DNA from: Trypanosoma brucei
Lineage: Eukaryota
Length of the DNA stretch: 64,000 nucleotides
Direction: 5' to 3'
NCBI GenBank assembly: GCA_000002445.1
Contig: CP000070.1
Span: forward strand, 1,120,001 to 1,184,000
Shown: positions 4,665 to 40,212 of the stretch, piece after piece
How positions within the stretch are numbered: the first letter of the stretch is position 1
Layout of the letters: every line of letters starts with the position of its first letter
Notes under the pieces: generated by a model
Databases searched by the model: none
Told to the model about the DNA's origin: nothing
The model's input: only the letters and a program-made list of their open reading frames with translations
Translations under genes and position numbers: made by a program

Positions 4665-5117
4665 CCCAACCGCTGGGGAGAAGAGCAATAATGAAGGTAA
4701 CACATCCCAGCAATGTATCGCTGGTAATAAATCAGTCATGTGGTGGCTTTGCATCTTAATTAAAGTTCTACCTTGTGACAAAGGGCTGCAGCCTATGCTA
4801 GGAAGTAAAATGGAGCGTTAATTTTATTCGGTGGGGAGTATTATTGTAAAGGTCCCTCAATAAACGTGTAAGACGTAACCCAAAGTAGGGGCTTAAGGAA
4901 GGATGGAAGGGCACTAGAGCATGTGTCCAGTCGCAGGTGCACACGCATAAGCCCCAATGTTCCTCTCCTTGTATTCCCGTGTTCCGCCTACACGCGAACA
5001 CCCGTACAAACTCAAGAGCACAAATCACTGCATCATTGTTTCTCTTCACTCTTCCCATAATTTTTCAATGTTTGCACAGACCCCATAGCAAGTAAGTGGA
5101 GAAAAAGGTAACACACA

Positions 5118-5858
5118 GTGAGTAAGAAAAGCAGCAACGACGAGAAACAAAAGTTTGGCGTAATGGTGATGAAGGCTTTCCCCCTTTCCCTGTTAGCGGC
5201 AACCACTGTGTTATTACTGCTGCTTCCTGTTCCTGGTAGGTGTGCTGATTGCTTTGCTCATTCAAATGATTACTCCACTCCCGGGGAGCCGTTCGGCAAA
5301 TCGAAGCACACAATCACCTTAAGTGGTGGGAACTGGGGCACTGTCATAGGCAGTGACGGAAATGCACTAAAGACGGCCCTTCTACTTGACATTTACGCTC
5401 AAATACTGCGACGGCATGCTTTTAACACTTCCGTCACCGTCGACGATATGCGACAGGGAGAGCATGGCATGGAAGCTGAAGTAACCGTTACACAGGTTTT
5501 GTTGACTGATGTCCCTAGGGCCGACTTGCAGCATACATGGAATCCCAACGAAATAACATCGTTGTTAATGCAAGGGGTGTACAAACACACAAAAGATAAA
5601 CACGATCCGCATTCAGACGTCCATCTCGTTAGTGTCAGACTCCCCGCTGCGACTACAGAGCTCCACAAGTGTGGGAAGGCCTGTTGGACTGTTCGGTTAA
5701 TAGGCATCTTTATAGGGATAGCCATGATTCTCATTGCAGCATACACTATATTCATAACGCGTAAATGGGAAAAGCAAGCGGAAAAAGAACCGGATGACGA
5801 CTCTTCGCGGGAACCATTGCCAGAACAAGAACAGAGGAGGTCGAGAACACGCGTGTAG
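5118..5858 (+). CDS. Small type-I membrane protein, family member A (signal peptide, ~150-aa ectodomain, one TM, charged tail)
   Basis: ORF with hydrophobic leader MVMKAFPLSLLAATTVLLLLLPVPG (functional start probably ~5163). Conserved motifs SKHTITLSG, TALLLDIYAQILRRHAF, VTVTQV, QHTWNPNEITSLLMQGVYKHT, CGKAC. TM segment LIGIFIGIAMILIAAYTIFI followed by K/E/D-rich tail. Confidence 0.7.
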   Translation: MSKKSSNDEKQKFGVMVMKAFPLSLLAATTVLLLLLPVPGRCADCFAHSNDYSTPGEPFGKSKHTITLSGGNWGTVIGSDGNALKTALLLDIYAQILRRHAFNTSVTVDDMRQGEHGMEAEVTVTQVLLTDVPRADLQHTWNPNEITSLLMQGVYKHTKDKHDPHSDVHLVSVRLPAATTELHKCGKACWTVRLIGIFIGIAMILIAAYTIFITRKWEKQAEKEPDDDSSREPLPEQEQRRSRTRV

Positions 5859-6787
5859 CATCGTTTCATTAGCAGCGGCGACAACAATCCGAAGTAATGC
5901 GCGGTTAGTTGCGGACAACATTCCACTGCGTCTCTTTGATATACTTTTTTTTGCTTTTGCTTTTCGCTGCATATACCAGCACCCCACTCCACGTGTGGTG
6001 AGGAGCTTGGGGTGGCATTCTTTGTTTGAACGCCTCCCATCCCCTTTTATGTTATTTTATGTTTTTTTTCCCCCTCTTGCTCGTTTATTCCCGCCCACCT
6101 TGTTGCTTTGACTGCCCTATGTACGACTGATAAATATGCATTGGACAACACATGGCTACTATTCAGTGTCTAAATACATCTTGCACACGCGGTCTTCCTG
6201 TTACTGCATGCACGGAAACTACTTTGAGCCCCCCCTTCCTTTCCCTCCCTACTTTTTCATCTTTCATATTATACCACATACATTTTGTGTATTACTCATT
6301 TTACCGTTAGCACCACCTTGCAAAGTTGTTAGCGTAATATGGGAATGTGTGTATTATATACTTCCCAATTGAATCCATATTCGGGAAGTTTTCTGTCTCC
6401 TCACTCGCCTCGTTGAAATCCTGTTAGTTGTCTCGGTATCAATGATAATATTGATGTGTGTTGAATGGTGGTTTATGGATGTGACTGTATTTTGTTGCGT
6501 ATGAACCACTGGAATGATTAAAAGGTCCTTTTAGCACTGCGGGGTTATGAATATTAATAGCCTGCACTCGTGTCAATGTATCTGGTAGTATTTTCACACC
6601 CCACCCACGTGCAACTTTTTACCTTTGCTCTGAGTTATTCTACTCCACACACCCATCGTTGCAACATTATTGGAAGTTAAGTGCTTTAGTAGTCATTAAT
6701 TTTGTAACGACTCTAATTAACGCGGTTCCGGTCGACAAAATTAAGCACTGCTGACACCCACTTCTTTATTTCCCCCACCTGGAAACA

Positions 6788-7126
6788 ATGACTCGGCAAT
6801 CCGATGTGCAAAAATCCATGAGGACAATTTCTGATGGAGCGGAAAAGGCAGTAGAAGTACGGAAATATGACGAGAAAGCGGTGCAGCAGCGGATGCAGAA
6901 ACTTTATGCCGATGTGGCGAAAAAGAAATTAGCTGAGAAGAAGCGAGCTGATGAGTTGGCGCAGATCCCGGTGTCGGAGGAGGATGTGCAACTTTTGGTG
7001 CGTGAATGCGGTTGGGAGGCGCAGGTGGCACAACAGAAACTCCGTGAGAGGAATGGAAGCGTTGTGGCGGTTCTTCGAGATGTTGCGGGACTCCCGAAGG
7101 CCAAAGCATCGAGTGGAACCTCCTGA
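6788..7126 (+). CDS. HYPK-like protein (Huntingtin-interacting protein K / NatA-associated, UBA-like C-terminus), copy 1
   Basis: 112 aa. The C-terminus VSEEDVQLLVRECGWEAQVAQQKLRERNGSVVAVLRDV parallels the HYPK UBA-like region (KKEDLELIMTEMEISRAAAERSLREHMGNVVEALIAL). The upstream charged helix KYDEKAVQQRMQKLYADVAKKKLAEKKRADEL parallels the HYPK central helix. Start codon uncertain because no AG sits between the polyY tract and the first ATG. Confidence 0.55.
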   Translation: MTRQSDVQKSMRTISDGAEKAVEVRKYDEKAVQQRMQKLYADVAKKKLAEKKRADELAQIPVSEEDVQLLVRECGWEAQVAQQKLRERNGSVVAVLRDVAGLPKAKASSGTS

Positions 7127-8339
7127 AACCTGACAAACAAAAAAAAACATTTACAATATAATGGTTATGACTGATTGAATGAGAGCAGCAGCGAGAGAAA
7201 CGGAAGTTGGCGGGGCCCTTTTGGTTGACTTGTTACGAGATGCTCAGAGGTGTGGAGCGTAAGCATGTGTGTAATCCCACTGAAGACAATTGCATGGTGA
7301 TGCAGGGGATGTTTGAGTTCATACAAATCTCAAACAAACACTGTAGAGGCGTTGAACTCATTAATGTCAAACTCCATCTGATTATTTCAGGCACGAATGC
7401 CCTCATGTAGGATGAAAAGGATTGCCACTTCCTTCATGTCGCAACGGATTCGCTATCAATTGCAACAGCTCCGACCTACAGCTTGTTGTGAGTTTTTAAC
7501 GCGCTTGGACTTCGGTAATGAACTTGGAACTTGATTTCCTGAGGATCGCCGCGGTGCATAATTTGTTCCTTCCCCATTTGATGTGAGCAGTGCGGTGCAC
7601 TTAACCATTGTGGTATCACTGCTTCGCTTTCTATGAGTGTGTGCTGTACAAATCTAATTCCTCTTCCACTATTTACCGTATTTGAAGCTCATTAAAGGAA
7701 CCATAATTAGCAAAGGGGGCACACTCAGTTGTCAAGGCAGTGGAACCCACAACATCCGCGCACAGCGGTGACACAAATGCATAATAGCTGCTTTTCATAC
7801 ACCTCTATTGTGGGGATGTTGATTCTCAAAGCGTAGTGGTTGTAATTTGAAATCAGGCATGGAGCGTCTGGGTAGGCGCATCGAGGCCAATCGCTTTATT
7901 ATGGGACAGTTGGATGGTATGCGAGGGTGCACGCCTGCTGTTGGTTGCAGCGGCAGCCTCAAAAAATTAAGTTATGCAACACTCGGTGTATTGCGCCGGG
8001 AGAATATGCGGCGGTGCGGGTGAGCCCTTTCACTGCACTTTGGGCAGCGGGGGTTGGGATGGTATCTACAGGGGATCTACTTCACATTGGAAAGTAAACG
8101 TCACAACTGCTGTCTCGACTGGTCGCTGATAGAACCCGTGAGGTGGAGAGAGAGACTGCTAGACCGGAGTTCCCTTCCAGGACGGATTAGCATCGGCAAA
8201 CCGAGAGGCACAAGCACGCCCTCGTTGTTGAATTACTGATCGGCATTCTGTTGGAGGTATGAAGGAATCGCAGTGGCGGCGGTGTTGATTAAAGTTTGAG
8301 AAACCTCGAGGAAAGGGAAAACCTCGTGTCGCAAAAGTC

Positions 8340-9515
8340 ACTATTTCCCGGGAGTCACACCGGCTATAGAGGCTGAAATTGAATACTTGAGAAAACAGTT
8401 GGGCGACTGTAAAGAACAACTTATAAAATACAGAGCACACTTTGAGCAGGTTAACCACGTTATTAAGAATAGACGAATTAAAGGAAATGGTTCAGCAGCA
8501 AGCTCAGACATTGGAAAAGCTCGAAAAATATTATCAAGAACAAAACGCCCAAAAGGTCCCGTGGCCGCTGATCCTCGGAAACGATGTCTGTAAACCCCCA
8601 ACCTTCCTCCATAGACCGTCAACAGAGCACTCAGATGTACCAACATGTTTCCACTACTCCGCTCGGCTTTAGTATAAACTGGGTCGGATGGAAAAACAGA
8701 GCGGAAACCTCTGAAGGACTTTTACAATTGTATGACGAATGTGGGACTACAATTGGGAATCCTGAGAGGCCTTCATGGTACAATTCTGTAAATTAATGGG
8801 GGGGAAGTGAATCATCTCTACATTTTTGGACGTTCACAAGATGGGTACGGTATTATGACCACTTCGTGGCTACGGCGAATAGAATGCCAATACAATATAT
8901 AACAACAGGGGCAGCTATGTATAAAACATGGCGAATGGAAATGGCAGCACAGAAAAGAGGAGTATTTATCCCACGGGCAATACAAGAAGGATTGGATACT
9001 GAAGGAGGTATCAATGTATGATAAGATGGCAAACGCAGCTGCAAAACAAAGAGCTCAGAGAAGTCGCCAAGGACGGAATTGAAGCAATTTCAACAACCAT
9101 CAGCGTCGAACAAGCCCAAACGGGCGAAGGAAGTCCCCATCGCGGAAACAGTAGCAAAGGCGAGACTGAGCGGGGCTCGTAAAATATACCGCTCCCGACA
9201 TAAGAGAATGAAACAAAAGGCGAAGAAAGAATGGTCAAAACTACAAATCCACAAGAACAGTGAATATGTTCGAAAACACATGGGAAACAAGAAAATTCTA
9301 TGGGGGTGTTGCGATCCGCGCGCGGATATACGCAACAAAGAGATACGGGGATGCACAAATAAAATAGTAGCTCCGGCACCACCTAACCCAGTGACTGTCC
9401 CCCGCGCGCAGATTAGGCCCTGTTCGTCAGGGAACTCTGAGCGAGAGCACTGTCCGGACCTTAAAATGCCCATTCAAGCACCGGAAGTCAAGCCGATGCT
9501 ATGGCGTAAACTATT
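8340..9515 (+). mobile_element. Partial inverted copy of a degenerate retroelement 5' region (gag-like, frameshifted) inside the left arm
   Basis: Mirror of 10482-11657. Coiled-coil ORF fragments in three frames (LRKQLGDCKEQLIKYRAHFEQVNHV / LRIDELKEMVQQQAQTLEKLEKYYQEQNAQK) are followed by a very basic ORF (MKQFQQPSASNKPKRAKEV...RSRHKRMKQKAKKEW...). The frame changes imply decay. Confidence 0.4.
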
Positions 9516-11657
9516 AGGCTGGCATTAACACGCTTGCACGCATTGTTGAAAAAAACTGAACTTCCTCATTATTTCTTGGAACCAGTCTAGCGGCTCAGTT
9601 GCTAATACTTTTGCCGTAGCCACCAGGCTTCCAAATAATTTTTCAAGGTCTCGCAGGTCGATTAATTTCAAATATTCTTGTGTCGTCATCTGAATAAATT
9701 GTCTAGCCACATTATTTTCAATTTATTCAGATGTTTTTCTGTTACTTGTACACTTTTATTATTGTGGTCCAAGACCGCTCCTATGGAATCATAACTGGTG
9801 GCGTAAGGCAGCGGTTCGGATAATGTCACGCAGTATTTCTCCACCTTGCCGTGGAGGAGGCTAATTATTTTTGGCGCTTGTTTTTCCGTAATTGCTAGTC
9901 TGAAATTATCGATCCAGACATCACCGTCTATCATCCGGTGCTCTCAACGCGTTACCTGCGAGTGCCCCGTTAATGTCATTACCAACCACTGCATAATTTC
10001 GCAGCTTGTTGTTAATCCCATGGGCAATTGTGTCATTTCCAAAGGCGAACCATCTGCAGTTGCAATGGAGAAGCATGCGGTGGTGTTTACCGGCAGGTCA
10101 ATTTCATAGTAACTTGCTTTTAAATCACCCACTATTGCTCCAGCAGCGGAGAGTATGTCCAGGTACTCCTGGAACGGGTTTAATTCCACTATACAGCGAT
10201 AATCACACACATTATCTAAATAGTCATTCGTCGTGTTTGGCCATACCAATAGTCTCCTCCTGTTTTTCCAGGGTTCATCGACTGTAGATGCACGGGCGAC
10301 TGGGGGATCCACTGTCGATTTCGTGATATTCGCGCTGAGTACGGTCTTGGCATCACTGGATGATAGCCACTAACGCGCTGGGACGTCGCCTATTTCGTCC
10401 CGTCTTACGTATTGCGCGGCATCGGCTAATTGCCGGAGCAGCACTTGAATTCTTTCTTGCACCTTATTTTTTGTCGAACGCAATAGTTTACGCCATAGCA
10501 TCGGCTTGACTTCCGGTGCTTGAATGGGCATTTTAAGGTCCGGACAGTGCTCTCGCTCAGAGTTCCCTGACGAACAGGGCCTAATCTGCGCGCGGGGGAC
10601 AGTCACTGGGTTAGGTGGTGCCGGAGCTACTATTTTATTTGTGCATCCCCGTATCTCTTTGTTGCGTATATCCGCGCGCGGATCGCAACACCCCCATAGA
10701 ATTTTCTTGTTTCCCATGTGTTTTCGAACATATTCACTGTTCTTGTGGATTTGTAGTTTTGACCATTCTTTCTTCGCCTTTTGTTTCATTCTCTTATGTC
10801 GGGAGCGGTATATTTTACGAGCCCCGCTCAGTCTCGCCTTTGCTACTGTTTCCGCGATGGGGACTTCCTTCGCCCGTTTGGGCTTGTTCGACGCTGATGG
10901 TTGTTGAAATTGCTTCAATTCCGTCCTTGGCGACTTCTCTGAGCTCTTTGTTTTGCAGCTGCGTTTGCCATCTTATCATACATTGATACCTCCTTCAGTA
11001 TCCAATCCTTCTTGTATTGCCCGTGGGATAAATACTCCTCTTTTCTGTGCTGCCATTTCCATTCGCCATGTTTTATACATAGCTGCCCCTGTTGTTATAT
11101 ATTGTATTGGCATTCTATTCGCCGTAGCCACGAAGTGGTCATAATACCGTACCCATCTTGTGAACGTCCAAAAATGTAGAGATGATTCACTTCCCCCCCA
11201 TTAATTTACAGAATTGTACCATGAAGGCCTCTCAGGATTCCCAATTGTAGTCCCACATTCGTCATACAATTGTAAAAGTCCTTCAGAGGTTTCCGCTCTG
11301 TTTTTCCATCCGACCCAGTTTATACTAAAGCCGAGCGGAGTAGTGGAAACATGTTGGTACATCTGAGTGCTCTGTTGACGGTCTATGGAGGAAGGTTGGG
11401 GGTTTACAGACATCGTTTCCGAGGATCAGCGGCCACGGGACCTTTTGGGCGTTTTGTTCTTGATAATATTTTTCGAGCTTTTCCAATGTCTGAGCTTGCT
11501 GCTGAACCATTTCCTTTAATTCGTCTATTCTTAATAACGTGGTTAACCTGCTCAAAGTGTGCTCTGTATTTTATAAGTTGTTCTTTACAGTCGCCCAACT
11601 GTTTTCTCAAGTATTCAATTTCAGCCTCTATAGCCGGTGTGACTCCCGGGAAATAGT
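9516..11657 (-). mobile_element. Degenerate retroelement (gag-like plus Ty3/gypsy/DIRS-type reverse-transcriptase remnants), spanning right arm and unique centre
   Basis: Minus-strand order is coiled-coil gag-like ORFs (11610->11201), then the basic protein (10918->10370), then RT motifs in the unique centre. The RT motifs are GDLKASYYEIDL (cf. DLKSGYHQI), TACFSIATADGSPLEMTQLPMGLTTSCEIMQWL (cf. KTAF.T..G.YEF.VMPFGLTNAPATFQRLM), VWIDNFRLAI (cf. VYLDDILIFS), then FGSLVATAKVLATEPLDWFQE (cf. the post-RT F..LK.AL.SAPVL..PDF block). Multiple stops and frameshifts mean it is non-functional. Confidence 0.5.
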
Positions 11658-14117
11658 GACTTTTGCGACACGAGGTTTTCCCTTTCCTCGAGGTTTCTCA
11701 AACTTTAATCAACACCGCCGCCACTGCGATTCCTTCATACCTCCAACAGAATGCCGATCAGTAATTCAACAACGAGGGCGTGCTTGTGCCTCTCGGTTTG
11801 CCGATGCTAATCCGTCCTGGAAGGGAACTCCGGTCTAGCAGTCTCTCTCTCCACCTCACGGGTTCTATCAGCGACCAGTCGAGACAGCAGTTGTGACGTT
11901 TACTTTCCAATGTGAAGTAGATCCCCTGTAGATACCATCCCAACCCCCGCTGCCCAAAGTGCAGTGAAAGGGCTCACCCGCACCGCCGCATATTCTCCCG
12001 GCGCAATACACCGAGTGTTGCATAACTTAATTTTTTGAGGCTGCCGCTGCAACCAACAGCAGGCGTGCACCCTCGCATACCATCCAACTGTCCCATAATA
12101 AAGCGATTGGCCTCGATGCGCCTACCCAGACGCTCCATGCCTGATTTCAAATTACAACCACTACGCTTTGAGAATCAACATCCCCACAATAGAGGTGTAT
12201 GAAAAGCAGCTATTATGCATTTGTGTCACCGCTGTGCGCGGATGTTGTGGGTTCCACTGCCTTGACAACTGAGTGTGCCCCCTTTGCTAATTATGGTTCC
12301 TTTAATGAGCTTCAAATACGGTAAATAGTGGAAGAGGAATTAGATTTGTACAGCACACACTCATAGAAAGCGAAGCAGTGATACCACAATGGTTAAGTGC
12401 ACCGCACTGCTCACATCAAATGGGGAAGGAACAAATTATGCACCGCGGCGATCCTCAGGAAATCAAGTTCCAAGTTCATTACCGAAGTCCAAGCGCGTTA
12501 AAAACTCACAACAAGCTGTAGGTCGGAGCTGTTGCAATTGATAGCGAATCCGTTGCGACATGAAGGAAGTGGCAATCCTTTTCATCCTACATGAGGGCAT
12601 TCGTGCCTGAAATAATCAGATGGAGTTTGACATTAATGAGTTCAACGCCTCTACAGTGTTTGTTTGAGATTTGTATGAACTCAAACATCCCCTGCATCAC
12701 CATGCAATTGTCTTCAGTGGGATTACACACATGCTTACGCTCCACACCTCTGAGCATCTCGTAACAAGTCAACCAAAAGGGCCCCGCCAACTTCCGTTTC
12801 TCTCGCTGCTGCTCTCATTCAATCAGTCATAACCATTATATTGTAAATGTTTTTTTTTGTTTGTCAGGTTTCAGGAGGTTCCACTCGATGCTTTGGCCTT
12901 CGGGAGTCCCGCAACATCTCGAAGAACCGCCACAACGCTTCCATTCCTCTCACGGAGTTTCTGTTGTGCCACCTGCGCCTCCCAACCGCATTCACGCACC
13001 AAAAGTTGCACATCCTCCTCCGACACCGGGATCTGCGCCAACTCATCAGCTCGCTTCTTCTCAGCTAATTTCTTTTTCGCCACATCGGCATAAAGTTTCT
13101 GCATCCGCTGCTGCACCGCTTTCTCGTCATATTTCCGTACTTCTACTGCCTTTTCCGCTCCATCAGAAATTGTCCTCATGGATTTTTGCACATCGGATTG
13201 CCGAGTCATTGTTTCCAGGTGGGGGAAATAAAGAAGTGGGTGTCAGCAGTGCTTAATTTTGTCGACCGGAACCGCGTTAATTAGAGTCGTTACAAAATTA
13301 ATGACTACTAAAGCACTTAACTTCCAATAATGTTGCAACGATGGGTGTGTGGAGTAGAATAACTCAGAGCAAAGGTAAAAAGTTGCACGTGGGTGGGGTG
13401 TGAAAATACTACCAGATACATTGACACGAGTGCAGGCTATTAATATTCATAACCCCGCAGTGCTAAAAGGACCTTTTAATCATTCCAGTGGTTCATACGC
13501 AACAAAATACAGTCACATCCATAAACCACCATTCAACACACATCAATATTATCATTGATACCGAGACAACTAACAGGATTTCAACGAGGCGAGTGAGGAG
13601 ACAGAAAACTTCCCGAATATGGATTCAATTGGGAAGTATATAATACACACATTCCCATATTACGCTAACAACTTTGCAAGGTGGTGCTAACGGTAAAATG
13701 AGTAATACACAAAATGTATGTGGTATAATATGAAAGATGAAAAAGTAGGGAGGGAAAGGAAGGGGGGGCTCAAAGTAGTTTCCGTGCATGCAGTAACAGG
13801 AAGACCGCGTGTGCAAGATGTATTTAGACACTGAATAGTAGCCATGTGTTGTCCAATGCATATTTATCAGTCGTACATAGGGCAGTCAAAGCAACAAGGT
13901 GGGCGGGAATAAACGAGCAAGAGGGGGAAAAAAAACATAAAATAACATAAAAGGGGATGGGAGGCGTTCAAACAAAGAATGCCACCCCAAGCTCCTCACC
14001 ACACGTGGAGTGGGGTGCTGGTATATGCAGCGAAAAGCAAAAGCAAAAAAAAGTATATCAAAGAGACGCAGTGGAATGTTGTCCACAACTAACCGCGCAT
14101 TACTTCGGATTGTTGTC
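10482..14117 (-). repeat. Right arm of the large inverted repeat
   Basis: See left arm. Only one mismatch was found (5922 C vs complement of 14075), giving LVADNI vs LVVDNI in mirrored ORFs. Confidence 0.9.
12871..13209 (-). CDS. HYPK-like protein, copy 2 (identical mirror copy in the right arm)
   Basis: 112-aa translation identical to 6788..7126. Confidence 0.55.
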   Translation of the reverse strand: MTRQSDVQKSMRTISDGAEKAVEVRKYDEKAVQQRMQKLYADVAKKKLAEKKRADELAQIPVSEEDVQLLVRECGWEAQVAQQKLRERNGSVVAVLRDVAGLPKAKASSGTS

Positions 14118-14975
14118 AGCACTATTGCTATCAGATATGCCTTCGTTACTTTCTGTTTCCATTCTGGCATCGTCGACGTTTAGGACATTGACTGCATGTT
14201 TATTTGGAGTAGGAATGTCTTCCTCTTCTTCTTCTTCATCTTCCTCTTTTTCTGCATCCCTTCTCCATTTAAAAATTAAGAATACGCAAATTGCAGAAAC
14301 GAGAGCCATAAAAAACAAAATGACGCCCGAGAAGGTTCGCAGAGCCGCGCAGCCCTCCCCGCACCTATGAAGTTTTTCACTTATGGTCGGGTTCTTGACG
14401 CTCAGGAGGCGCACGGCACCGTTGCTACCGGTTTCGCTGTTACCACCGTACTCATTGTACAAGTTGTTTGTGTGTTTATACGTTCCTTGCATTAGTAACG
14501 ACGATATCTCGCTGGGATTCCATGTGTGCTGCATCTTCTCGCTCGGGGTACCATTTATCAAAACTTGCGTAATGGTCACTGTAACACTCATGTGTTTACC
14601 TCGAGTATTTACGTCGTTGATGTCAGCTGTGGTGTCGAAAGCGTGTCTCCGTAATATTTGAGCGTAAATATCAAGAAGAAGAGCCGTCTTTAGTTTCCTT
14701 TCACCCCCCGTATACACACCACCCCACTTATCGCCACTAAAAGTGATTACATGTTTCGATGTGCCCAACTGTTCTTCGTCAGTGGAATTATTGTCCCTCG
14801 GTGTTGCAAAGCAATTTTTCGAGAGAGTGGGCATGGGGATCAGCAACAGCATTGCTGCTGTTGTAAGAGAAAATGAAACCTTCACTGTCATTATGCTGAA
14901 AAGGGCTTTCTCTTTTCCTTTCTTTTTGTAAGCTACCCGTGTTTTACTTCTTTGCTCTAAGCCAAAACTTACCAA
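14100..14975 (-). CDS. Small type-I membrane protein, family member B
   Basis: Hydrophobic leader MTVKVSFSLTTAAMLLLIPMPTL. Motifs SKHVITFSGDKWG, TALLLDIYAQILRRHAF (identical 17-mer to member A), VTVTITQV, QHTWNPSEISSLLMQGTYKHT, CGEGC. TM VILFFMALVSAICVFLIF. Long acidic tail (EEDEEEEEEDIP...). The ORF-track start at 14975 is probably upstream of the true Met. Confidence 0.65.
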   Translation of the reverse strand: MVSFGLEQRSKTRVAYKKKGKEKALFSIMTVKVSFSLTTAAMLLLIPMPTLSKNCFATPRDNNSTDEEQLGTSKHVITFSGDKWGGVYTGGERKLKTALLLDIYAQILRRHAFDTTADINDVNTRGKHMSVTVTITQVLINGTPSEKMQHTWNPSEISSLLMQGTYKHTNNLYNEYGGNSETGSNGAVRLLSVKNPTISEKLHRCGEGCAALRTFSGVILFFMALVSAICVFLIFKWRRDAEKEEDEEEEEEDIPTPNKHAVNVLNVDDARMETESNEGISDSNSADNNPK

Positions 14976-15899: not shown

Positions 15900-16613
15900 T
15901 TATTTGTTTGTTTCCTCAGTCCTATAGTGGTCTTGATTGTAAGGATGATTGGCATTGCTCTCATCTTTTTCTTTTGGTTCCCCACGGCAACAGTTGACGA
16001 TTAGGTAAATGATCAAAATAAGTAAAGAAACCCCCATTAAAATAATAACTACCATCGCCAGCTTTAATAGTCGCCTGCATGTGTCATCGCACTCACCAAA
16101 ATGCAGTTTTCCATCATGCACCTTCACGGAGATGAGTTCCGGTCTCTTCACACCTTCGTACAAACTTAGCGTTTTACTATAATCCGTCTGCGTAATAAGT
16201 GAATTCACCTCCGCAGGCGGCCAAATGTGTTGCCTCTCAGGATTTGAAACTTGTGCCCTGACGGTTTGTACAACAACTATGAGTATTTCGATAAAGTTGT
16301 GTGTGGGGTCGAATGAGGTAATTAAAACCTCCGTCAGAAAACTTCCATTCCGTTGCACGTAACGATCGATGTCGCTCACAAGTATTTCCCTCAGTTGTTC
16401 CTCTTTCTGCTGGACAGTTGCCGCCCAATTGTCGCCATCAAATTTCACGGTATGTTTTGATGTTGAGGACTGCTGGATGTCGTCAGCACACCTACCAGGA
16501 ACAGGAAGCAGCAGTAATAACACAGTGGTTGCCGCTAACAGGGAAAGGTGGAAAGCCTTCATCACCATTACGCCAAACTTTTGTTTCTCGTCGTTGCTGC
16601 TTTTCTTACTCAC
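15900..16613 (-). CDS. Small type-I membrane protein, family member C
   Basis: N-terminal 44 aa (MSKKSSNDEKQKFGVMVMKAF[H/P]LSLLAATTVLLLLLPVPGRCAD) nearly identical to member A. Divergent ectodomain with a QHIWPPAEVNSLITQTDYSKT motif, CDDTC pair, TM MVVIILMGVSLLILIIYLIV and a charged tail. Confidence 0.65.
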   Translation of the reverse strand: MSKKSSNDEKQKFGVMVMKAFHLSLLAATTVLLLLLPVPGRCADDIQQSSTSKHTVKFDGDNWAATVQQKEEQLREILVSDIDRYVQRNGSFLTEVLITSFDPTHNFIEILIVVVQTVRAQVSNPERQHIWPPAEVNSLITQTDYSKTLSLYEGVKRPELISVKVHDGKLHFGECDDTCRRLLKLAMVVIILMGVSLLILIIYLIVNCCRGEPKEKDESNANHPYNQDHYRTEETNK

Positions 16614-16785
16614 TGTGTGTTACCTTTTTCTCCACTTACTTGCTATGGGGTCTGTGCAAACATTGAAAAATTATGGGAAGAGTGAAGAGAAACAATGGTG
16701 CAGTGATTTGTGCTCTTGAGTTTGTACGGGTGTGCGCGTGTATTAAGTCAAGAAATGAGTGAGATAACAATGACCAATAAACAGG
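16497..16785 (-). promoter_or_regulatory. Conserved 5' flank/5' UTR block of the membrane-protein family (copy upstream of member C)
   Basis: About 285 bp nearly identical to 18108-18384 (upstream of member D). Its proximal ~180 bp is also found, reverse-complemented, at 5035-5215 (upstream of member A). It covers the presumed splice-acceptor region, 5' UTR and signal-peptide codons. Confidence 0.55.
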
Positions 16786-17538: not shown

Positions 17539-18219
17539 TTAATCCCTTTCTTCAAGTTTCGGACGCCGGAAATGCGAATAAATCCAAATGTACGCCGTCA
17601 CACTAACTATTATGGTCATAGCAGCGAGAGACACGGCCACCACACCTCTAAGAATTTGACAGCTCGTGCCACATAATGGCGGACCCGGGGGAACCAAAGG
17701 AAGTCTGACGGTAATGAGTTCAACATCCCCATGGGGTTTGTACGTGCTTTTTGTGTGTTCAAATTTTCCCTGCATTATCATAGAGTTGGCCTCACTGGGA
17801 TTCCACACATGCTGCAACTCAGGCGTGGGGTCATCAGCCAATGCAACTTGTGTAACGGTCACTTCAACTTCCATTTCCCCCTCTCTCACTTTCATATTGT
17901 TGATGGTAACGGTGGTGTTGACGGCGTACTCCCGTTGCGTTTGCAAGTAAATGTCGAGCAAAAGTGACTTCCTCAACTTCGCTTCATCACTTATGACAAT
18001 TTCGTCCCATTTCGTGCCTTTAAAGGTGATTATGTGCTTCGATTTGCCGAACTCCGTTGGTTGCAAGTACAACATCGTACCATTGAGGCAGTCAGAGTGT
18101 GCGGGAACAGGAAGCAGCAGTAATAACACAGTGGTTGCCGCTAACAGGGAAAGGGGGAAAGCCTTCATCACCATTACGCCAAACTTTTGTTTCTCGTCGT
18201 TGCTGCTTTTCTTACTCAC
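17539..18219 (-). CDS. Small type-I membrane protein, family member D
   Basis: Same leader (MSKKSSNDEKQKFGVMVMKAFPLSLLAATTVLLLLLPVP). Motifs SKHIITFKGTKW, SLLLDIYLQ, VEVTVTQV, QHVWNPSEANSMIMQGKFEHT, CGTSC. TM VVAVSLAAMTIIVSVTAYIWI and a short basic tail. Confidence 0.65.
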   Translation of the reverse strand: MSKKSSNDEKQKFGVMVMKAFPLSLLAATTVLLLLLPVPAHSDCLNGTMLYLQPTEFGKSKHIITFKGTKWDEIVISDEAKLRKSLLLDIYLQTQREYAVNTTVTINNMKVREGEMEVEVTVTQVALADDPTPELQHVWNPSEANSMIMQGKFEHTKSTYKPHGDVELITVRLPLVPPGPPLCGTSCQILRGVVAVSLAAMTIIVSVTAYIWIYSHFRRPKLEERD

Positions 18220-19871
18220 TGTGTGTTACCTTTTTCTCCACTTACTTGCTATGGGGTCTGTGCAAACATTGAAAAATTATGGGAAGAGTGAAGAGAAACA
18301 ATGGTGCAGTGATTTGTGCTCTTGAGTTTGTACGGGTGTGCGCGTGTATTAAGTCAAGAAATGAGTGAGATAACAATGACCAATAACGCTACTTGATGAT
18401 GGAAACAAAAAGGGTACACGCATAAGAAGTCTACCACCATTCCATGGTGTGATTATTGCAAACTCGAAGGTAGTGTCGATTAACCACCCAGACGAGCCAT
18501 CTCCAGTTGTCGTTACTGTTGTTAATAGACCGAAAACAAGCCCTAGTAAGCGGTTAATTACTGGAGGAAGGATTTGCTCCTCTTTATTGGTGCTGCATAC
18601 TAACTTGTTATCATTGTTCCTTCAGCACTGCTGTTCAGTACGATAGGAGGAGGGGATTTGAATATATATATATATATATAAACAACTTTGCAGAACCAAA
18701 ATGCATCACTGAATTCCAACGAAGCGTTAAGACGAAAAATGATAACCCCCTCTCAGCATTGTCGACGCCAAGTTTATCGTTTTAAATACAAACATGCACG
18801 GAAATACGTATGATGCGTGCCCATAAACCCGTTGGATCAAATATTCACGCGGCGGCACTCTGTAAAATATAAAATGCCCGTCATGCGGCACGACGGAACG
18901 AGCGGGTCAACTTGTGGTTTCTACCCTTTTGTATCTTCAGGGCGCAATGGTGCTTCCACAACGCACCGAAGCTACTCAATGTCGGTTCACTATCGTGTGG
19001 CAACTTCATGACTAGGCCATTTCGATTTTGAAGTTATACTTCACTACTTAGTCGCCCCACGCTCCATTTCATTTGGAAGTACCGTATCTAACGCGGTGCC
19101 AAGGCTTGTTTTTGCTCCTTTGGCAGAACAAAAACATTCAGTAGCAAACGGTTGGCAGTAAAGTTTGAGATGGGCCGACTAAGAACTCAGAGCCGTTGGC
19201 GCGGATGTCCCCACGGGTTGGTTTAGTATGCCCAAGTGACGTGCTCAGTGAGTTCTTCAGCTGAGTCCTTACGTATTGTGTGAAGGCCGTAGTTAAGCGG
19301 CAGCATTCGTGGGGCCAGATTATTTGACCAAATAGCTGCGACAAGTGAAGGAATACCTTCAGCAGCCTAGTTCTTGTCCATAGTTCCCCTAGAGATAGCT
19401 CTTATGAAGGAGAAAAAGTGAAGGCAACCCATTGGATGTTAGAAGTGAAGCGACGCGAAAGGGGGAAACAGTAAATCTTGCGGATGAAGAAATGCAAACG
19501 TATATCTCATGAGAGTTTGGCTCGAAAGGGAGGCGTTTTGTCAAAAGCGTACGAATGGAAAGGGAAAGAAGGGACAAGTGGCATTTGCGTACTCCCTTTA
19601 AAGTTAGGAACCACAGTTGCACGTCTTCCCGGATGCTCATCCATCCACCTCTTCGCACTGTCACCAGGGCCCCCCTGCCGATTGGGACATGGCTCTCATA
19701 TCAAATAACGCTTTCAAAAGCCTTAACAATTAATAGTCATAAATAATAATAATAATATTGATAGTAGTCGGCACGATGCTGTGCCATGAACGAAGACCGA
19801 CATCCATTCAGTCACAACGCAGTTTCACGCCGTGGAGAACTGCAACGCTGGATTCAGCTTTTTCCTGGTGA

Positions 19872-20765
19872 TCAGCATATTTTGGCTTGTGAGAAGTCCA
19901 TTTCGGGATGCGCCGCCATAAACTTCGCCAGCATTTCTCTCTTTTTCTGCTCCTCTGAAGTGGGCAGTCCCATGGCCTTTTGCCTCTGGTCGTACATCAT
20001 TTTTTCAACCGTTTGTCTTGTATCGCCGTCAAGGTCGTCTAACTTGGAGTTCTCCGGCATCACCTTCTGCAGGTCGATTTCAGCATCACCCACCATAACA
20101 GTCTTCCACCACTCCATTTGATTTTGCTTCGTCAGCGTAACCACCACCGTGTGACCATCTTCAATAGTCCACATGGACTCCTCAGTTTTCACACTGGCAA
20201 AAAGCTCGCCATCAACAATAGGAGGCTTCCCCTTCATCCCCACCCGTAAACGGCGCTGCTGAAGAACCACATCCACATCCTTCCCCTTTGCGCGTGCCAC
20301 CAGTAACGGCACTCTCACTTCGACCTCCTTAAGTGTTTGCGAGAACATATAGTGCTCGTAATCGAACCCGTTCCCGACGGTCGGAGGAAGTCCTTTCGGC
20401 TTTGCTCCATCTTCATCTTCTTTCGCATTTGCTAATTCTTCCTTTTTTCGCTCCAAATCCGCTTTGCGCTTTGCGGCTTCAGCAGCCGCCTGCGCCGCCG
20501 CCTTCGCCTTCACCTCCTCTTCATCCTCCACCTCTTCCACGCGCGAGACGGGTGCCTCCTTCCGTTTTTGCCTTTGTTTCTCTTCCGCCTGCGCTAAATG
20601 GCGGTCAAGTGCGCGTTGTACTGCTGTGCGAGCCATGGCTGGTTGCGAGAAGAAGTCCGTTTTCCGCCCAAGAAAAGAGAAGAAGGTGTTGAGGATGGAG
20701 TCAATGCCATCGTGCTGCTGGGCGATAGCCAAAAGCATCGTGTCGAATCGTTCGTCCGTCGCCAT
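19872..20765 (-). CDS. NUDC: Nuclear distribution protein NudC homologue (CS domain)
   Basis: 297 aa. Acidic/K-rich coiled region, then a CS-domain core (YMFSQTLKEVEVRVPL...EESMWTIEDGHTVVVTLTK...WWKTVM) and the NudC-type C-terminus KFMAAHPEMDFSQAKI. Confidence 0.85.
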   Translation of the reverse strand: MATDERFDTMLLAIAQQHDGIDSILNTFFSFLGRKTDFFSQPAMARTAVQRALDRHLAQAEEKQRQKRKEAPVSRVEEVEDEEEVKAKAAAQAAAEAAKRKADLERKKEELANAKEDEDGAKPKGLPPTVGNGFDYEHYMFSQTLKEVEVRVPLLVARAKGKDVDVVLQQRRLRVGMKGKPPIVDGELFASVKTEESMWTIEDGHTVVVTLTKQNQMEWWKTVMVGDAEIDLQKVMPENSKLDDLDGDTRQTVEKMMYDQRQKAMGLPTSEEQKKREMLAKFMAAHPEMDFSQAKIC

Positions 20766-35994: not shown

Positions 35995-38900
35995 CTAGTA
36001 ACCTGCCAAGTCCCAGATGCTCGCGGCACGTTCGACTTCACTACAAACACCATCAGCACACTTTCGTACGCGTGGCGCACCTCTCATTGGGCTTAGTGAG
36101 GGAAATAGGTAATTGTCGACGTACATTTTCTGGTAGCGCCACTCCGCCGACTCCAGGAATGAAACAGTCACTTTGCTGTAAAAAGGTTGAAGGTGCTGTG
36201 CACCCCTCAATGATTGGGCTCTCTGTTTCCGAAGATGAAGTTTGTAGATTTCTGCATAACCGATCGGTGCCGCGGTGTTACCCTGCTGACGTGCTTTTTG
36301 ACAAACCTGCAGACTCCCACAGGGATTGGAACGGCTCAACGTAACAAATCTCGCTTCCCCTGATGCGGAGGCAGCGCCGTGCGTCGCCGTTCCTGCACAC
36401 TCTGTACCTCGAACCTTTTTCCTGCGCTTGACATTGTAGCCCGTGAAATCGCTATCATTGGCAATAGAACCCTGAACAGCCGACTTGCGCATAAGCAGAG
36501 GGGCCCACGGCCGGTCACGAAGATGCGGGGGAGTGCTGCACCGTCCATCCGTAATGTTGATTGACCAAACAACAGCTTTCTCATGCTGTTTTGGGTGTTC
36601 AGCTTCATCAAAAGTCACCAGGGAGCCAGTGCTCTGTTCGTTCGCCTGATATTCCGCAGGTACCGGGTCTTCCAGTGGCTCAGTGACATCTTTCACCATT
36701 GATAAAGCGGGTTCATTCCGATGTGGCCGCTTGCACAACAGTGAAGCGTCAGTGTACGGTTCAGTAGCGCGTGCCTCATCCTTAAACAGAGCGGTGTTAT
36801 TCGCTTCAATTTCACAATGACCACCTCCGGACCCCGCAACATCACCCGCATATTCTTCAAAACACAAGGATAGACTGGGTGGCCATTGCACCAGTGATCG
36901 ATAACAGTTCAGCTCGTCCCACCGCATTTCATTCCTCGCGTAATACTCAGCTCGTTCATTGTGCCACCGATTTCGTGCTTCTCTTTGAACAAGTTTGAAT
37001 AAAGAAATGTAGCACTGTTCCTCAACACAAGAGACCATATCACTGTAAGAAGAAACAACTTGGTTCGATTGGTCTTCGGTCCACACATAACCCTTGGTTG
37101 GTTCAGCAGTCGGATACGTCGCCTCGACAGCGGGTAATTCATGCTGGTCAGCTACGTCTGCAACACGGAGTGGGGTGGTGACGCGGTGTTCGAGAGCAGC
37201 AGAGTAACGAATCGCTTCAGCGCCCGTGGTAGTGGAAATTGATATATCACAACCACTCCTGTCACTCACGCCAAACAGTGATTTGCCAGCACCTTCAAGC
37301 GGCTCCCTGGTAGTGCTCAGTTCATGGAGCACGGTCGTCAAAACCGTATTCGCACGTTGCTCAGAATCAAGAACAATCTTATCATCTGAGCTTGCACAAA
37401 TACCAGCCACATCAACGCTAAGCATGCTTCCACTCCTCAGCGTGTTCGAGCGCATGACGCGCCGTAACAAGTTTGTAACACCCTCATCTTCTTGGCTTTC
37501 GATGGTGCCTCTTATTGCACATTCCTCACGTTGCAATTCACTAAGCAACTGTTGACACTGGAGGTAGCGTCTTTGTTCCTGTAATCGATATGCACTACGC
37601 TCAGCAGCAGAAGCAGCGGATTCACCTGCCCATCGTAACAAGTTTGTAACACCCTCATCTTCTTGACTTTCGATGGTGCCTCTTATTGCGCATTCCTCAC
37701 GTTGCAATTCACTAAGCAACTGTTGACACTGGAGGTAGCGTCTTTGTTCCTGTAATCGATATGCACTACGCTCAGCAGCAGAAGCAGCGGATTCACCTGC
37801 CCATCGTAACAAGTTTGTAACACCCTCATCTTCTTGGCTTTCGATGGTGCCTCTTATTGCACATTCCTCACGTTGCAATTCACTAAGCAACTGTTGACAC
37901 TGGAGGTAGCGTCTTTGTTCCTGTAACCGATATGCACTACGCTCAGCAGCAGAATCAGCGGATTCACCTGCCCATCGTAACAAGTTTGTAACACCCTCAT
38001 CTTCTTGGCTTTCGATGGTGCCTCTTATTGCGCATTCCTCACGTTGCAATTCACTAAGCAACTGTTGACACTGGAGGTAGCGTCTTTGTTCCTGTAATCG
38101 ATATGCACTACGCTCAGCAGCAGAAGCAGCGGATTCACCTGCCCATCGTAACAAGTTTGTAACACCCTCATCTTCTTGGCTTTCGATGGTGCCTCTTATT
38201 GCACATTCCTCACGTTGCAATTCACTAAGCAACTGTTGACACTGGAGGTAGCGTCTTTGTTCCTGTAATCGATATGCACTACGCTCAGCAGCAGAATCAG
38301 CGGATTCACCTGCCCATCGTAACAAGTTTGTAACACCCTCATCTTCTTGGCTTTCGATGGTGCCTCTTATTGCACATTCCTCACGTTGCAATTCACTAAG
38401 CAACTGTTGACACTGGAGGTAGCGTCTTTGTTCCTGTAATCGATATGCACTACGCTCAGCAGCAGAATCAGCGGATTCACCTGCCCATCGTAACAAGTTT
38501 GTAACACCCTCATCTTCTTGGCTTTCGATGGTGCCTCTTATTGCACATTCCTCACGTTGCAATTCACTAAGCAACTGTTGACACTGGAGGTAGCGTCTTC
38601 GTTCCTGTAATCGATATGCACTACGCTCAGCAGCAGAATCAGCGGATTCACCTGCCCATCGTAACAAGTTTGTAACACCCTCATCTTCTTGGCTTTCGAT
38701 GGTGCCTCTTATTGCACATTCCTCACGTTGCAATTCACTAAGCAACTGTTGACACTGGAGGTAGCGTCTTCGTTCCTGTAATCGATATGCACTACGCTCA
38801 GCAGCAGAATCAGCGGATTCACCTGCCCATCGTAACAAGTTTGTAACACCCTCATCTTCTTGGCTTTCGATGGTGCCTCTTATTGCACATTCCTCACGTT

Positions 38901-40212
38901 GCAATTCACTAAGCAACTGTTGACACTGGAGGTAGCGTCTTCGTTCCTGTAATCGATATGCACTACGCTCAGCAGCAGAATCAGCGGATTCACCTGCCCA
39001 TCGTAACAAGTTTGTAACACCCTCATCTTCTTGACTTTCGATGGTACGCCCGACCACAGCATCCCTGTGTTGAGTTTCGGTCAGCAACTCGTAGCAACGG
39101 TTGCCCAGCGGTGGAGTGCGGGCGCCAACGTTTTGTTTGTTGGGGATGTGTTTCGAATAGTTTGGCAGTGAGGAGCGGTCTTCTTGCGGTTCTCGACGCA
39201 ATATGGAATGATGACTCCAACTACCACCTCGATCACTCCTTTCAGCATGAATTAAATCGTGCGTGGACGAGGCGGAGGCGCTGTTTAGTTTGTCGTTTCG
39301 TAATGCAGAAGGTCGTGCATATCCTGATGTGTTTTCTGTGGAAAAGTGAGGAAAACGGTGATCCAAGTTTGTGACACTAAGGAGATCAGCGGCTGTTACC
39401 GAACTGTGGCCTTCCTCCAGTTCTGCCATATACAGCAACCCGAAAGCCTTCTCGTAGTGCGACGCCAAGAGCCCGTAAGCTGCCCTGCGCCACTGCAACG
39501 TGCGTGTTGCAAACTCCCCGGCAGGATCGTACTCAAAGGAAGAGAAGGACGCGCTCGATGCCTTGCTCAGTAAAGAATCGAATGACGACTCTCCGGAGTG
39601 TAACAATGCGGATGTAGTGTTCATTAATGGTGGTGAGTCTCCTAGCACTGTGGTGGCACCGAGAAATAAAGCAGATGTAACGTTGGTTTCTGAGAAGCCA
39701 GTTGACTGCTTGCGCCTCTGTCTTGAAAGATACTCATCGCTCTTCCCCCGCAACCCCATATTAGGTTGCTTCGTGTCTTTTCCGACGATAGCTGATTCAG
39801 CCCTTTTGGGTAAATGCTTCGCGTGAGTCTGGGTGAGCCCCTCGATGTTTTTGCAAAGAGGAGTCCACTTGGTCTCACTTTTGATATCGTCCGTTCTACT
39901 TTTAAATTCGGGCTTCAATCCCATCTCTATATTTTTTACAGTATGATGATGTTTCTTCGGACTTACACAACTTTTTGGCTGCGATTGCGCCGTTGTGCCA
40001 CTCCGCAACGAACTGTGGTACCCCTTAAGAGCAGAGCCATGGCTGGGGAGGCGAACCAAACCTGTGTGGGCCACCGAGTTCTGACGCATACGTTTAAGGT
40101 AATATTCAATACGAGCAATGTGGCGATCCACCGACGCTATGGATGAAGCAACACCCTCCATCTGACAGGTGGTCGCTTCCTCCTCCTGTAATAATGAGCT
40201 AATACAGAGCAA
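35995..40212 (-). CDS. Large repetitive protein (1405 aa) with ~10 tandem 57-aa repeats
   Basis: Continuous ORF. The central region is IRGTIESQEDEGVTNLLRWAGESADSAAERSAYRLQE[R/Q]RRYLQCQQLLSELQREECA repeated ~10 times with only ADSAA/AASAA and ERRR/EQRR variants. Flanks are Ser-rich low complexity. Confidence 0.7.
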   Translation of the reverse strand: MLCISSLLQEEEATTCQMEGVASSIASVDRHIARIEYYLKRMRQNSVAHTGLVRLPSHGSALKGYHSSLRSGTTAQSQPKSCVSPKKHHHTVKNIEMGLKPEFKSRTDDIKSETKWTPLCKNIEGLTQTHAKHLPKRAESAIVGKDTKQPNMGLRGKSDEYLSRQRRKQSTGFSETNVTSALFLGATTVLGDSPPLMNTTSALLHSGESSFDSLLSKASSASFSSFEYDPAGEFATRTLQWRRAAYGLLASHYEKAFGLLYMAELEEGHSSVTAADLLSVTNLDHRFPHFSTENTSGYARPSALRNDKLNSASASSTHDLIHAERSDRGGSWSHHSILRREPQEDRSSLPNYSKHIPNKQNVGARTPPLGNRCYELLTETQHRDAVVGRTIESQEDEGVTNLLRWAGESADSAAERSAYRLQERRRYLQCQQLLSELQREECAIRGTIESQEDEGVTNLLRWAGESADSAAERSAYRLQERRRYLQCQQLLSELQREECAIRGTIESQEDEGVTNLLRWAGESADSAAERSAYRLQERRRYLQCQQLLSELQREECAIRGTIESQEDEGVTNLLRWAGESADSAAERSAYRLQEQRRYLQCQQLLSELQREECAIRGTIESQEDEGVTNLLRWAGESADSAAERSAYRLQEQRRYLQCQQLLSELQREECAIRGTIESQEDEGVTNLLRWAGESAASAAERSAYRLQEQRRYLQCQQLLSELQREECAIRGTIESQEDEGVTNLLRWAGESADSAAERSAYRLQEQRRYLQCQQLLSELQREECAIRGTIESQEDEGVTNLLRWAGESAASAAERSAYRLQEQRRYLQCQQLLSELQREECAIRGTIESQEDEGVTNLLRWAGESAASAAERSAYRLQEQRRYLQCQQLLSELQREECAIRGTIESQEDEGVTNLLRRVMRSNTLRSGSMLSVDVAGICASSDDKIVLDSEQRANTVLTTVLHELSTTREPLEGAGKSLFGVSDRSGCDISISTTTGAEAIRYSAALEHRVTTPLRVADVADQHELPAVEATYPTAEPTKGYVWTEDQSNQVVSSYSDMVSCVEEQCYISLFKLVQREARNRWHNERAEYYARNEMRWDELNCYRSLVQWPPSLSLCFEEYAGDVAGSGGGHCEIEANNTALFKDEARATEPYTDASLLCKRPHRNEPALSMVKDVTEPLEDPVPAEYQANEQSTGSLVTFDEAEHPKQHEKAVVWSINITDGRCSTPPHLRDRPWAPLLMRKSAVQGSIANDSDFTGYNVKRRKKVRGTECAGTATHGAASASGEARFVTLSRSNPCGSLQVCQKARQQGNTAAPIGYAEIYKLHLRKQRAQSLRGAQHLQPFYSKVTVSFLESAEWRYQKMYVDNYLFPSLSPMRGAPRVRKCADGVCSEVERAASIWDLAGY
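37455..39040. repeat. 171-bp tandem repeat array (~9.3 copies) inside the 35995..40212 CDS
   Basis: The unit ...cgtaacaagtttgtaacaccctcatcttcttggctttcgatggtgcctcttattgcacattcctcacgttgcaattcactaagcaactgttgacactggaggtagcgtctt... recurs every 171 bp (e.g. 37630, 37801, 37972 ... 38998) with rare SNPs. Confidence 0.9.

Follow-up and report, generated by a model that had tools for sequence, protein, structure and literature searches.

The Fam79 locus and the front end of its genes

The window analyzed here is a 64,000-nucleotide (nt) stretch of chromosome 7 of Trypanosoma brucei brucei TREU927 (chr7:1,120,001-1,184,000), in which four small paralogs, designated A to D, are placed around a convergent strand-switch region. 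They belong to family 79 of the T. brucei cell-surface phylome (Fam79; ESP12/ESP13/EVMP1), and three of them, A, C and D, have a near-identical front end of ~260-283 bp, which is the subject of this report. The open reading frames (ORFs) A to D are 100% identical to XP_846046, XP_846049, XP_846050 and XP_846051, in that order, and the ends of the B coding sequence (CDS) are the coordinates 1134100-1134891 of Kolev 2010. The names Fam79.1-79.4 were taken from the KHARON preprint (bioRxiv 10.1101/2020.10.07.330316), in which an N-terminal signal sequence and one C-terminal transmembrane helix are described for Tb927.7.4270; Fam79 proteins are known from surface proteomics as surface or flagellar-pocket membrane proteins (PMC4587319). 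In the translations of all four genes hydrophobic stretches are seen by eye at the N- and C-terminus, and C also gave weak matches to Pfam transmembrane regions. Positions in the text and in Table 1 are those of the window.

Table 1. Positions of the Fam79 genes, of the parts of their 5' cassettes and of the neighboring palindrome
Feature	Position	Strand	Remarks
Member A, Tb927.7.4230 / ESP12 / Fam79.1	CDS 5163-5858	+	231 amino acids (aa)
Member B, Tb927.7.4260 / ESP13 / Fam79.2	CDS 14100-14891	-	mapped 5' untranslated region (UTR) 14892-14967; used as internal control
Member C, Tb927.7.4270 / Fam79.3 / EVMP1	CDS 15900-16568	-	222 aa
Member D, Tb927.7.4280 / Fam79.4	CDS 17539-18174	-	211 aa
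5' cassette of A	4989-5248	+	-174 to +86 from ATG 5163
5' cassette of C	16483-16780	-	-212 to +86 from ATG 16568; 16498-16780 common with D, 16483-16742 with A
5' cassette of D	18104-18386	-	-212 to +71 from ATG 18174
Polypyrimidine tract of C (TGTTTCTCTTCACTCTTCCCATAATTTTTC)	16665-16694	-	read from sequence; putative role from general trans-splicing rules
Polypyrimidine tract, equivalent in D	18271-18300		
Polypyrimidine tract, equivalent in A	5037-5066		
Predicted trans-splice acceptor AG of C	16652-16653	-	first AG past the polypyrimidine tract; prediction only
Predicted acceptor AG, equivalent in D	18258-18259		
Predicted acceptor AG, equivalent in A	5078-5079		
Predicted ~83-nt 5'UTR of C	16569-16651		
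Predicted ~83-nt 5'UTR of D	18175-18257		
Predicted ~83-nt 5'UTR of A	5080-5162		
Start codon and signal-peptide codons 1-25 of C (MVMKAFHLSLLAATTVLLLLLPVPG)	16494-16568	-	
Start codon and signal-peptide codons 1-25, equivalent in D	18100-18174		
Start codon and signal-peptide codons 1-25, equivalent in A	5163-5237		
Palindrome, left arm	5880-9515		3' flank of A; HYPK-like gene 6788-7126 (+)
Palindrome, right arm	10482-14117		3' flank of B, including the last 5 codons and stop of B; HYPK-like gene 12871-13209 (-)

A sequence-only reading of the window had described the front end as a near-identical 5' flank of C and D, at 16497-16785 and 18108-18384, that is also present in part, reverse-complemented, upstream of A (5035-5215). 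The near-identity is real. As found by a repeat finder and by blastn, 282 of 283 nt are identical between C 16498-16780 and D 18104-18386, so that the positions first given were right within a few bases, being off by 1-5 nt; the sole mismatch (plus strand, T at 16549 in C and G at 18155 in D) changes codon 7 from His to Pro. A match of this length at 99.6% cannot be due to chance. The identity between C and D stops at 16780/18386, at exactly the "...gaccaataa" that had been named as its end, and sensitive blastn detected no further flank similarity between the C and D units. The inverted copy at A does exist but is longer than had been claimed, covering 260 nt (4989-5248), of which 257 match C 16742-16483, with 3 mismatches (blastn); against D 18348-18104 it matched over 245 nt at 99%. 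It lies 11-13 kb from the copies of C and D, beyond the convergent strand-switch region. The description as a 5' flank was correct in that the block holds the splice-acceptor region and the 5'UTR, but its final 71 nt (C and D) or 86 nt (A and C) are coding and comprise the start codon and the signal peptide. Conversely, similarity confined to the coding leader was not what the alignment gave, since the block reaches -212 in C and D and -174 in A. The abrupt divergence past the signal peptide was also borne out: outside the block the nucleotide identity of the coding bodies drops at once to 38-58%.

The order of elements within the cassette, from 5' to 3', is ~50-90 nt of sequence, a polypyrimidine tract, an AG, an 83-nt leader that is purine-rich and lacks an upstream ATG, the start codon, and the n- and h-regions of the signal peptide. 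The first AG past the polypyrimidine tract is the predicted splice acceptor. The mapped 5' end of B is window position 14967 (Kolev 2010 supplement) and sits right after the first AG past its own polypyrimidine tract, which indicates that the first-AG rule holds in Fam79; in the spliced-leader-trapping and RNA-seq supplements, splice-site coordinates were found for B only and none for A, C and D. The signal peptide of C is identical to that of D until codon 24 and to that of A until codon 29, and the shared N-terminal peptide reads MVMKAF(P/H)LSLLAATTVLLLLLPVPG. The 3' edge of the block probably coincides with the signal-peptidase region (VPG|R in A and C; VPA/HS in D), the putative cleavage site being assigned by the -3/-1 rule.

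No excess RNA structure was detected relative to shuffled controls, either in the 5'UTR (minimum free energy -7 kcal/mol, z +0.76) or in the whole block (z +1.89); as both were less structured than their controls, a structured RNA element in the leader or block was dropped as a candidate. Searches of the whole window with Rfam (gathering threshold) and ARAGORN yielded nothing, indicating that the block and its vicinity are free of RNA genes. The block is a functional module made up of RNA-processing signals, a leader and an endoplasmic reticulum (ER)-targeting signal.

Variation among paralogs, strains and species

The cassette and the coding bodies behind it differ greatly in age. In the bodies synonymous sites are saturated, the proportion of differing synonymous sites (pS) being 0.62-0.78 and the synonymous distance (dS) exceeding 1.3 or not computable, whereas in the block pS is at most 0.05 and the non-coding part is identical. 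This excludes whole-gene duplication followed by uniform drift, in agreement with the sequence-only reading. In the body phylogeny C is the outlier (22-29% aa identity to the other three) and the closest relative of A is B; in spite of this, the longest blocks are those that C has in common with A and with D. The grouping of A, C and D by the block contradicts the phylogeny of their bodies. Member B possesses a diverged but recognizably homologous cassette: its signal peptide has 47-49% nt identity to the others, with a likeness pattern of F-x-L..AA...LLL.P.P....CFA, and shows what an unconverted copy looks like. The presence of this homologous version in B argues that the cassette is ancestral to the family.

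The homologous cassette of B, together with the family's in-frame start codon and signal peptide inside the block, makes it highly improbable that the block is a generic repeat or a mobile-element fragment that chanced to sit upstream of these genes. What leaves such an idea any room is that the search for copies was limited to the 64-kb window and ~100 kb of related loci. Within that sequence copies were found at A, C and D only, and no terminal repeats, target-site duplications or ORF of the block's own were seen; moreover, there was no Rfam or tRNA match, and the N-terminus was unmatched in any other protein among 5.8 billion clusters.

The TREU927 locus was compared with those of T. b. gambiense DAL972, T. 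b. equiperdum BoTat and T. equiperdum OVI, and in each of these the block is again found at A, C and D, with unchanged boundaries. The common core of 244 nt contains 11 variable sites (block positions are numbered from window 16900, in gene orientation), several of which are distributed by strain and not by gene. Positions 197-198 read AC in all three TREU927 copies and GT in every gambiense and BoTat copy; a variant at position 203 is common to C and D of TREU927 only, and one at position 309 to the C and D copies of gambiense and BoTat. At position 312 a variant is found in the A copies of gambiense and BoTat and in the second gambiense C copy, and the variant at the His/Pro site, 352, belongs to C in TREU927 but to A and D in OVI. 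Over the core, the TREU927 paralogs differ from each other by 1-3 nt and the gambiense copies by 2-6 nt, while TREU927-gambiense orthologues differ by 4-7 nt. As strain-specific variants are shared across paralogs, paralogs within a strain thus differ less than orthologues between strains, and such sharing is the defining signature of concerted evolution. In the four-gamete test, all four gametes were observed in 7 of 45 informative site pairs.

These data also bear on the view that the common front end of A, C and D goes back to a single recent event, either the replacement of a 5' end or a register-shifted duplication, with no exchange since. The identical boundaries in all four T. brucei-group assemblies are in its favor. 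Nevertheless, the strain-specific variants among paralogs and the four-gamete incompatibilities need exchange after the strains had separated, and the greater homogeneity of the TREU927 copies (1-3) relative to those of gambiense (2-6) points to lineage-specific events; together with the finding, described below, of the same mosaic in three species, which would need three coincidental one-off events, this makes a single origin improbable.

An assembly artefact, in which paralog reads were collapsed or mis-joined, could in principle mimic such homogeneity, and the OVI assembly, which we take to be a short-read one, does break inside the block, while the DAL972 array contains a gap of Ns. Boundaries are, however, identical in the assemblies of TREU927, DAL972 and BoTat, which are presumably based on Sanger, Sanger and PacBio sequencing, respectively; and a block of 283 nt is shorter than a Sanger read, so that single reads would span it. 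The probability that the pattern is artefactual is accordingly very small.

Several peculiarities of these assemblies were observed. The OVI contigs L006, L007 and L008 start or stop inside the cassette or at the edge of the palindrome listed in Table 1, and L007 has the block at both ends; contig ends at these repeats indicate that block and palindrome break that assembly. In the DAL972 assembly the B-C-D unit (equivalent to window ~19782-13610) is present twice, joined via exactly 100 Ns (L003:12988-13087), and the C copies of the two units can be told apart at block sites 309 and 312; BoTat has a single B-C-D unit. A block-mediated origin of the DAL972 duplication was considered and rejected, as its ends lie at window ~19782 and ~13610 and are joined through the 100 Ns.

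One possible explanation for the identity of the copies is that they form a shared module for trans-splicing, 5'UTR and signal peptide that purifying selection maintains for the sake of co-regulation, with no involvement of recombination. The block does hold a polypyrimidine tract, AG, leader, ATG and signal peptide, the same architecture is identical among paralogs in three species, and identity itself could be useful. On the other hand, between-strain divergence of orthologues is 2.1% in the block (17/826) compared to 1.5% over 13 kb of the locus; as the block thus changes no more slowly than the sequence around it, purifying selection by itself is insufficient to account for its identity, nor can selection alone yield variants that are common to paralogs within a strain. 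Furthermore, the sequence of the T. vivax block is wholly different, the 5'UTR is without excess structure, and B works with a diverged cassette.

The expression of the carriers is likewise at odds with co-regulation. C is preferentially procyclic, whereas A has its higher expression in bloodstream forms, as does B, a member without the block (bioRxiv 10.1101/2020.10.07.330316). Tb927.7.4270 is reported in the literature to be raised in stumpy forms, and A and B were listed among "robustly regulated transcripts" by Nilsson 2010, where A was confirmed by quantitative PCR with body-specific primers. Since A and C combine the same cassette with opposite stage preferences, stage control must lie elsewhere. 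In trypanosome gene regulation in general, its likely seat is the 3'UTR. Based on the opposite preferences of A and C, the undistinguished folding of the leader and a divergence that is not reduced, the suggestion of a co-regulated module was not upheld, and maintenance by selection without recombination is considered improbable.

The family extends beyond T. brucei. Word-indexed protein searches with A alone, an A-D profile or a T. congolense profile returned only clusters of the query species itself, but an exhaustive profile search recovered ~20 small full-length relatives. Cluster look-up of ten hits placed three relatives in T. congolense IL3000 (TcIL3000_7_3410, TcIL3000_7_3420 and CCC91533), three in T. 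vivax and at least one in each of T. cruzi, T. grayi, T. theileri and T. melophagium; the annotation "T. brucei spp.-specific" is therefore wrong. The three T. congolense paralogs, which were compared at the protein level only, have an identical 23-aa N-terminus (MTTNALLSFAVALLLVGPISALA) followed by bodies that are 24-30% identical.

In T. vivax the genes (locus L009) are in a syntenic position, downstream of a WDR3-like gene. Two of them, V1 and V2, are recent duplicates; the third, V3, is a paralog of ancient origin (body pS 0.82). The three genes share a block of 241 nt (-144 to +97) with a single mismatch, and over signal-peptide codons 1-32 their nt sequences are 100% identical. This block, too, is composed of a polypyrimidine tract, an AG, a short leader and a signal peptide, with its end at the signal-peptide junction, yet no sequence similarity to the T. 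brucei block was found. The identity of V1 and V2 begins exactly at the 5' edge of the cassette, and V2 and V3 are identical upstream through the HYPK gene, a layout that would be the expected product of unequal crossover within the cassette. The upstream identity of V2 and V3 belongs to a larger recent tandem duplication, and this part of the T. vivax pattern can also be counted on the side of a one-off event.

A bootstrapped distance tree of the mature regions joined C of T. brucei with the T. congolense C-type protein (97% bootstrap), to which T. vivax V3 was added at 78%, and monophyly of the paralogs of each species received 0%. The split of the paralogs hence predates that of T. brucei, T. 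congolense and T. vivax. The cassettes, unlike the bodies, group by species. Old paralogs with species-specific cassettes indicate a long-running homogenization that proceeded lineage by lineage.

Two further observations concern these relatives. A and C of T. brucei have five extra codons in common (G-R-C-A-D; 16483-16497 and 5234-5248), past the point where D diverges, and no Cys is present at that position in the C-type orthologues of T. congolense and T. vivax, which hints at an A-type gene as the source from which this end of the cassette of C was copied. Next after the T. vivax Fam79 array comes an ingi-like retroelement (L009:12126-14693; Exo_endo_phos_2 and RVT_1 matches), and a 738-nt inverted repeat of 99% identity (L009:11917-12654 and 19315-20052) encloses ~6.7 kb there.

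Proposed conversion of the 5' cassette

Taken together, the discordant phylogeny, the strain variants common to paralogs, the divergence of 2.1% relative to 1.5% and the recurrence in T. vivax and, at the protein level, in T. congolense agree with the segmental gene conversion that the sequence-only reading had suggested, and we consider it probable that interlocus conversion has repeatedly kept the 5' cassette near-identical among A, C and D. The parts encoding the mature proteins are ancient paralogs, whereas the cassette would, according to this explanation, have been overwritten time and again between copies by non-reciprocal homologous recombination, mostly as interlocus gene conversion and now and then as unequal crossover, with the inverted A copy 11-13 kb away taking part in the exchange. 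Conversion tracts would end where homology ends: upstream at the gene-specific 3'UTR of the preceding gene, and downstream where the functionally diverged ectodomain begins. In this way the cassette would act as a self-perpetuating island of homology. A plausible pathway is RAD51-type repair with a mismatch-repair barrier against diverged sequence, and homogenization is presumably tolerated, the parts being interchangeable, and not selected for. We infer the recombination pathway, the tolerance of homogenization, the exact splice site and the cleavage site.

A number of points weigh against gene conversion as proposed here. The T. brucei-group comparison amounts to two effectively independent lineages only, as the gambiense and BoTat cores are identical, and it involves no more than 11 variable sites. 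The OVI consensus may be chimeric at the block, inside which its contigs break, and the second B-C-D unit of DAL972 may reflect another haplotype or faulty scaffolding in place of a real tandem duplication. The T. congolense pattern is known from protein sequences alone, and the search for copies covered the window and ~100 kb of related loci. The proposal does not account for the exclusion of B from homogenization. Conversion is read from sequence patterns, and these fit neutral homogenization as well as selection for identical cassettes.

An additional scenario, which we regard as speculative and rather unlikely, is that the cassette is a maintained module for both recombination and expression of the Fam79 locus across the Salivarian species T. 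vivax, T. congolense and T. brucei, its identity being itself favored. Were this so, the gain might be that RNA processing and ER entry are made alike for functionally diverged surface paralogs, or that one trans-acting factor controls them. Identical cassettes would anchor unequal crossover and inversion; such events would change copy number, as in the [body-HYPK] duplication of T. vivax, and ectodomain bodies could swap between convergent transcription units with the sense of transcription unbroken.

Whatever the pathway, the Fam79 cassette is a compact and well-bounded natural case of sub-genic concerted evolution in a genome that lacks introns and individual promoters: interchangeable gene parts (RNA-processing signals, leader and ER signal) are homogenized and host-exposed ectodomains diverge. 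A practical consequence is that the mRNAs of A, C and D cannot be told apart over their first ~155 nt, so that tags, reads and reagents confined to this stretch are unassignable to one paralog; this affects spliced-leader tags, short RNA-seq reads, start-codon ribosome-profiling footprints, 5' targets for RNA interference or CRISPR, and N-terminal tagging primers. The A/C pair, with the same cassette and opposite stage preferences, also provides a natural experiment on stage regulation, the seat of which is presumably in the 3'UTRs.

Related systems, the neighboring palindrome and other observations

The Fam79 cassette belongs to a known kind of phenomenon, that of partial gene conversion and concerted evolution in T. 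brucei. Jackson 2007 (BMC Evol Biol 7:54, PMC1855330) detected partial gene conversion in 21 of 47 tandem arrays, including arrays with invariant non-coding regions and diverged CDS (Tb24, Tb62a) and that of BARP, with a distance of 0.335 in the CDS and 0.073 in the 5'UTR; conversion events "spanned the start codon", and UTR histories were discordant with CDS histories. Mechanism and signature are the same as in Fam79. The Fam79 tract differs in being a sharply bounded 5' cassette that ends at the signal-peptide junction, in that one partner is inverted beyond a convergent strand-switch region and is no tandem neighbor, in that member B is left out, and in the preservation of the pattern in T. 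vivax and, apparently, T. congolense. Fam79 genes are not mentioned in the main text of Jackson 2007 (PMC1855330), and a cassette with this combination of a sharp end at the signal-peptide junction, an inverted partner, the exclusion of B and recurrence in T. vivax and T. congolense appears not to have been described, no mention of it having been found in the searchable literature.

Two more distant parallels, each of them an analogy, can be drawn. In Fam79, as in the MASP and mucin genes of T. cruzi, which encode unrelated proteins, the signal-peptide region and adjacent UTR are conserved and the ectodomain is divergent; the MASP family is reported to have conserved ends and variable middles. 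Those families comprise hundreds to thousands of members in which the C-terminal glycosylphosphatidylinositol signal and the 3' flank are also conserved, whereas Fam79 consists of four genes, of which A, C and D share the 5' end only and A and B have a common 3' flank separately, via the palindrome. Likewise, in the conotoxin and other venom-peptide superfamilies a near-invariant signal sequence gives way abruptly, at the processing site, to a hypervariable mature peptide. These are animal genes with introns between the regions, and the contrast is usually put down to differing selection or mutation; Fam79 genes, in contrast, are intronless, and their shared strain-specific variants point to recombination.

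The palindrome has arms of 3636 nt and a spacer of 966 nt (9516-10481) and spans the convergent strand-switch region between A and B; the HYPK-like gene in each arm has a Pfam UBA_HYPK match. It is also present in DAL972 and BoTat. The arms differ from each other by 1 nt in TREU927, 2 nt in DAL972 and 12 nt in the BoTat assembly, and TREU927 and gambiense arms are ~45 nt apart (~1.2%). Arms that are alike within a strain and apart between strains indicate arm-to-arm gene conversion, and the Fam79 locus is in this respect demonstrably conversion-active. Conversion between arms reportedly also occurs in the ampliconic palindromes of the human Y chromosome, and the pattern of the 3.6-kb arms described here is the same signature of intrachromosomal conversion between inverted repeats; the likeness concerns the neighboring palindrome and not the 5' block, and the trypanosome palindrome is far smaller and lies at a convergent transcription-unit boundary.

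One edge of the palindrome is inside the CDS of B, at its last 5 codons and stop (GACAACAATCCGAAGTAA, 14100-14117). The same 18 nt recur 22 nt past the stop codon of A (5880-5897), which suggests that a C-terminus like that of B was formerly part of A and is no longer translated.

Apart from the weak transmembrane matches of C, the sole Pfam match of A-D was FAZ1_cons, which exceeded the cut-off (27.5 bits) in C only, with 32 bits, and which has no bearing on the 5' block. What matches is a motif of ~45 residues in the N-terminal part of the ectodomain (S-K-H-x-I-x-F-x-G-x-x-W ... L..D; in the region of residues ~36-110 of A-D). In the exhaustive search a FAZ1_cons-like motif of ~45 residues was found as 4-14 repeats in giant proteins of 1,500-5,000 aa (P0020, P0028-P0034 and others). 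Elsewhere in the window, ORF 35995-40212 (minus strand; 1405 aa), which has a BING4CT (NUC141) Pfam match, contains at 37463-39045 a tandem array of 9.3 copies of a 171-bp (57-codon) unit with 99% identity.

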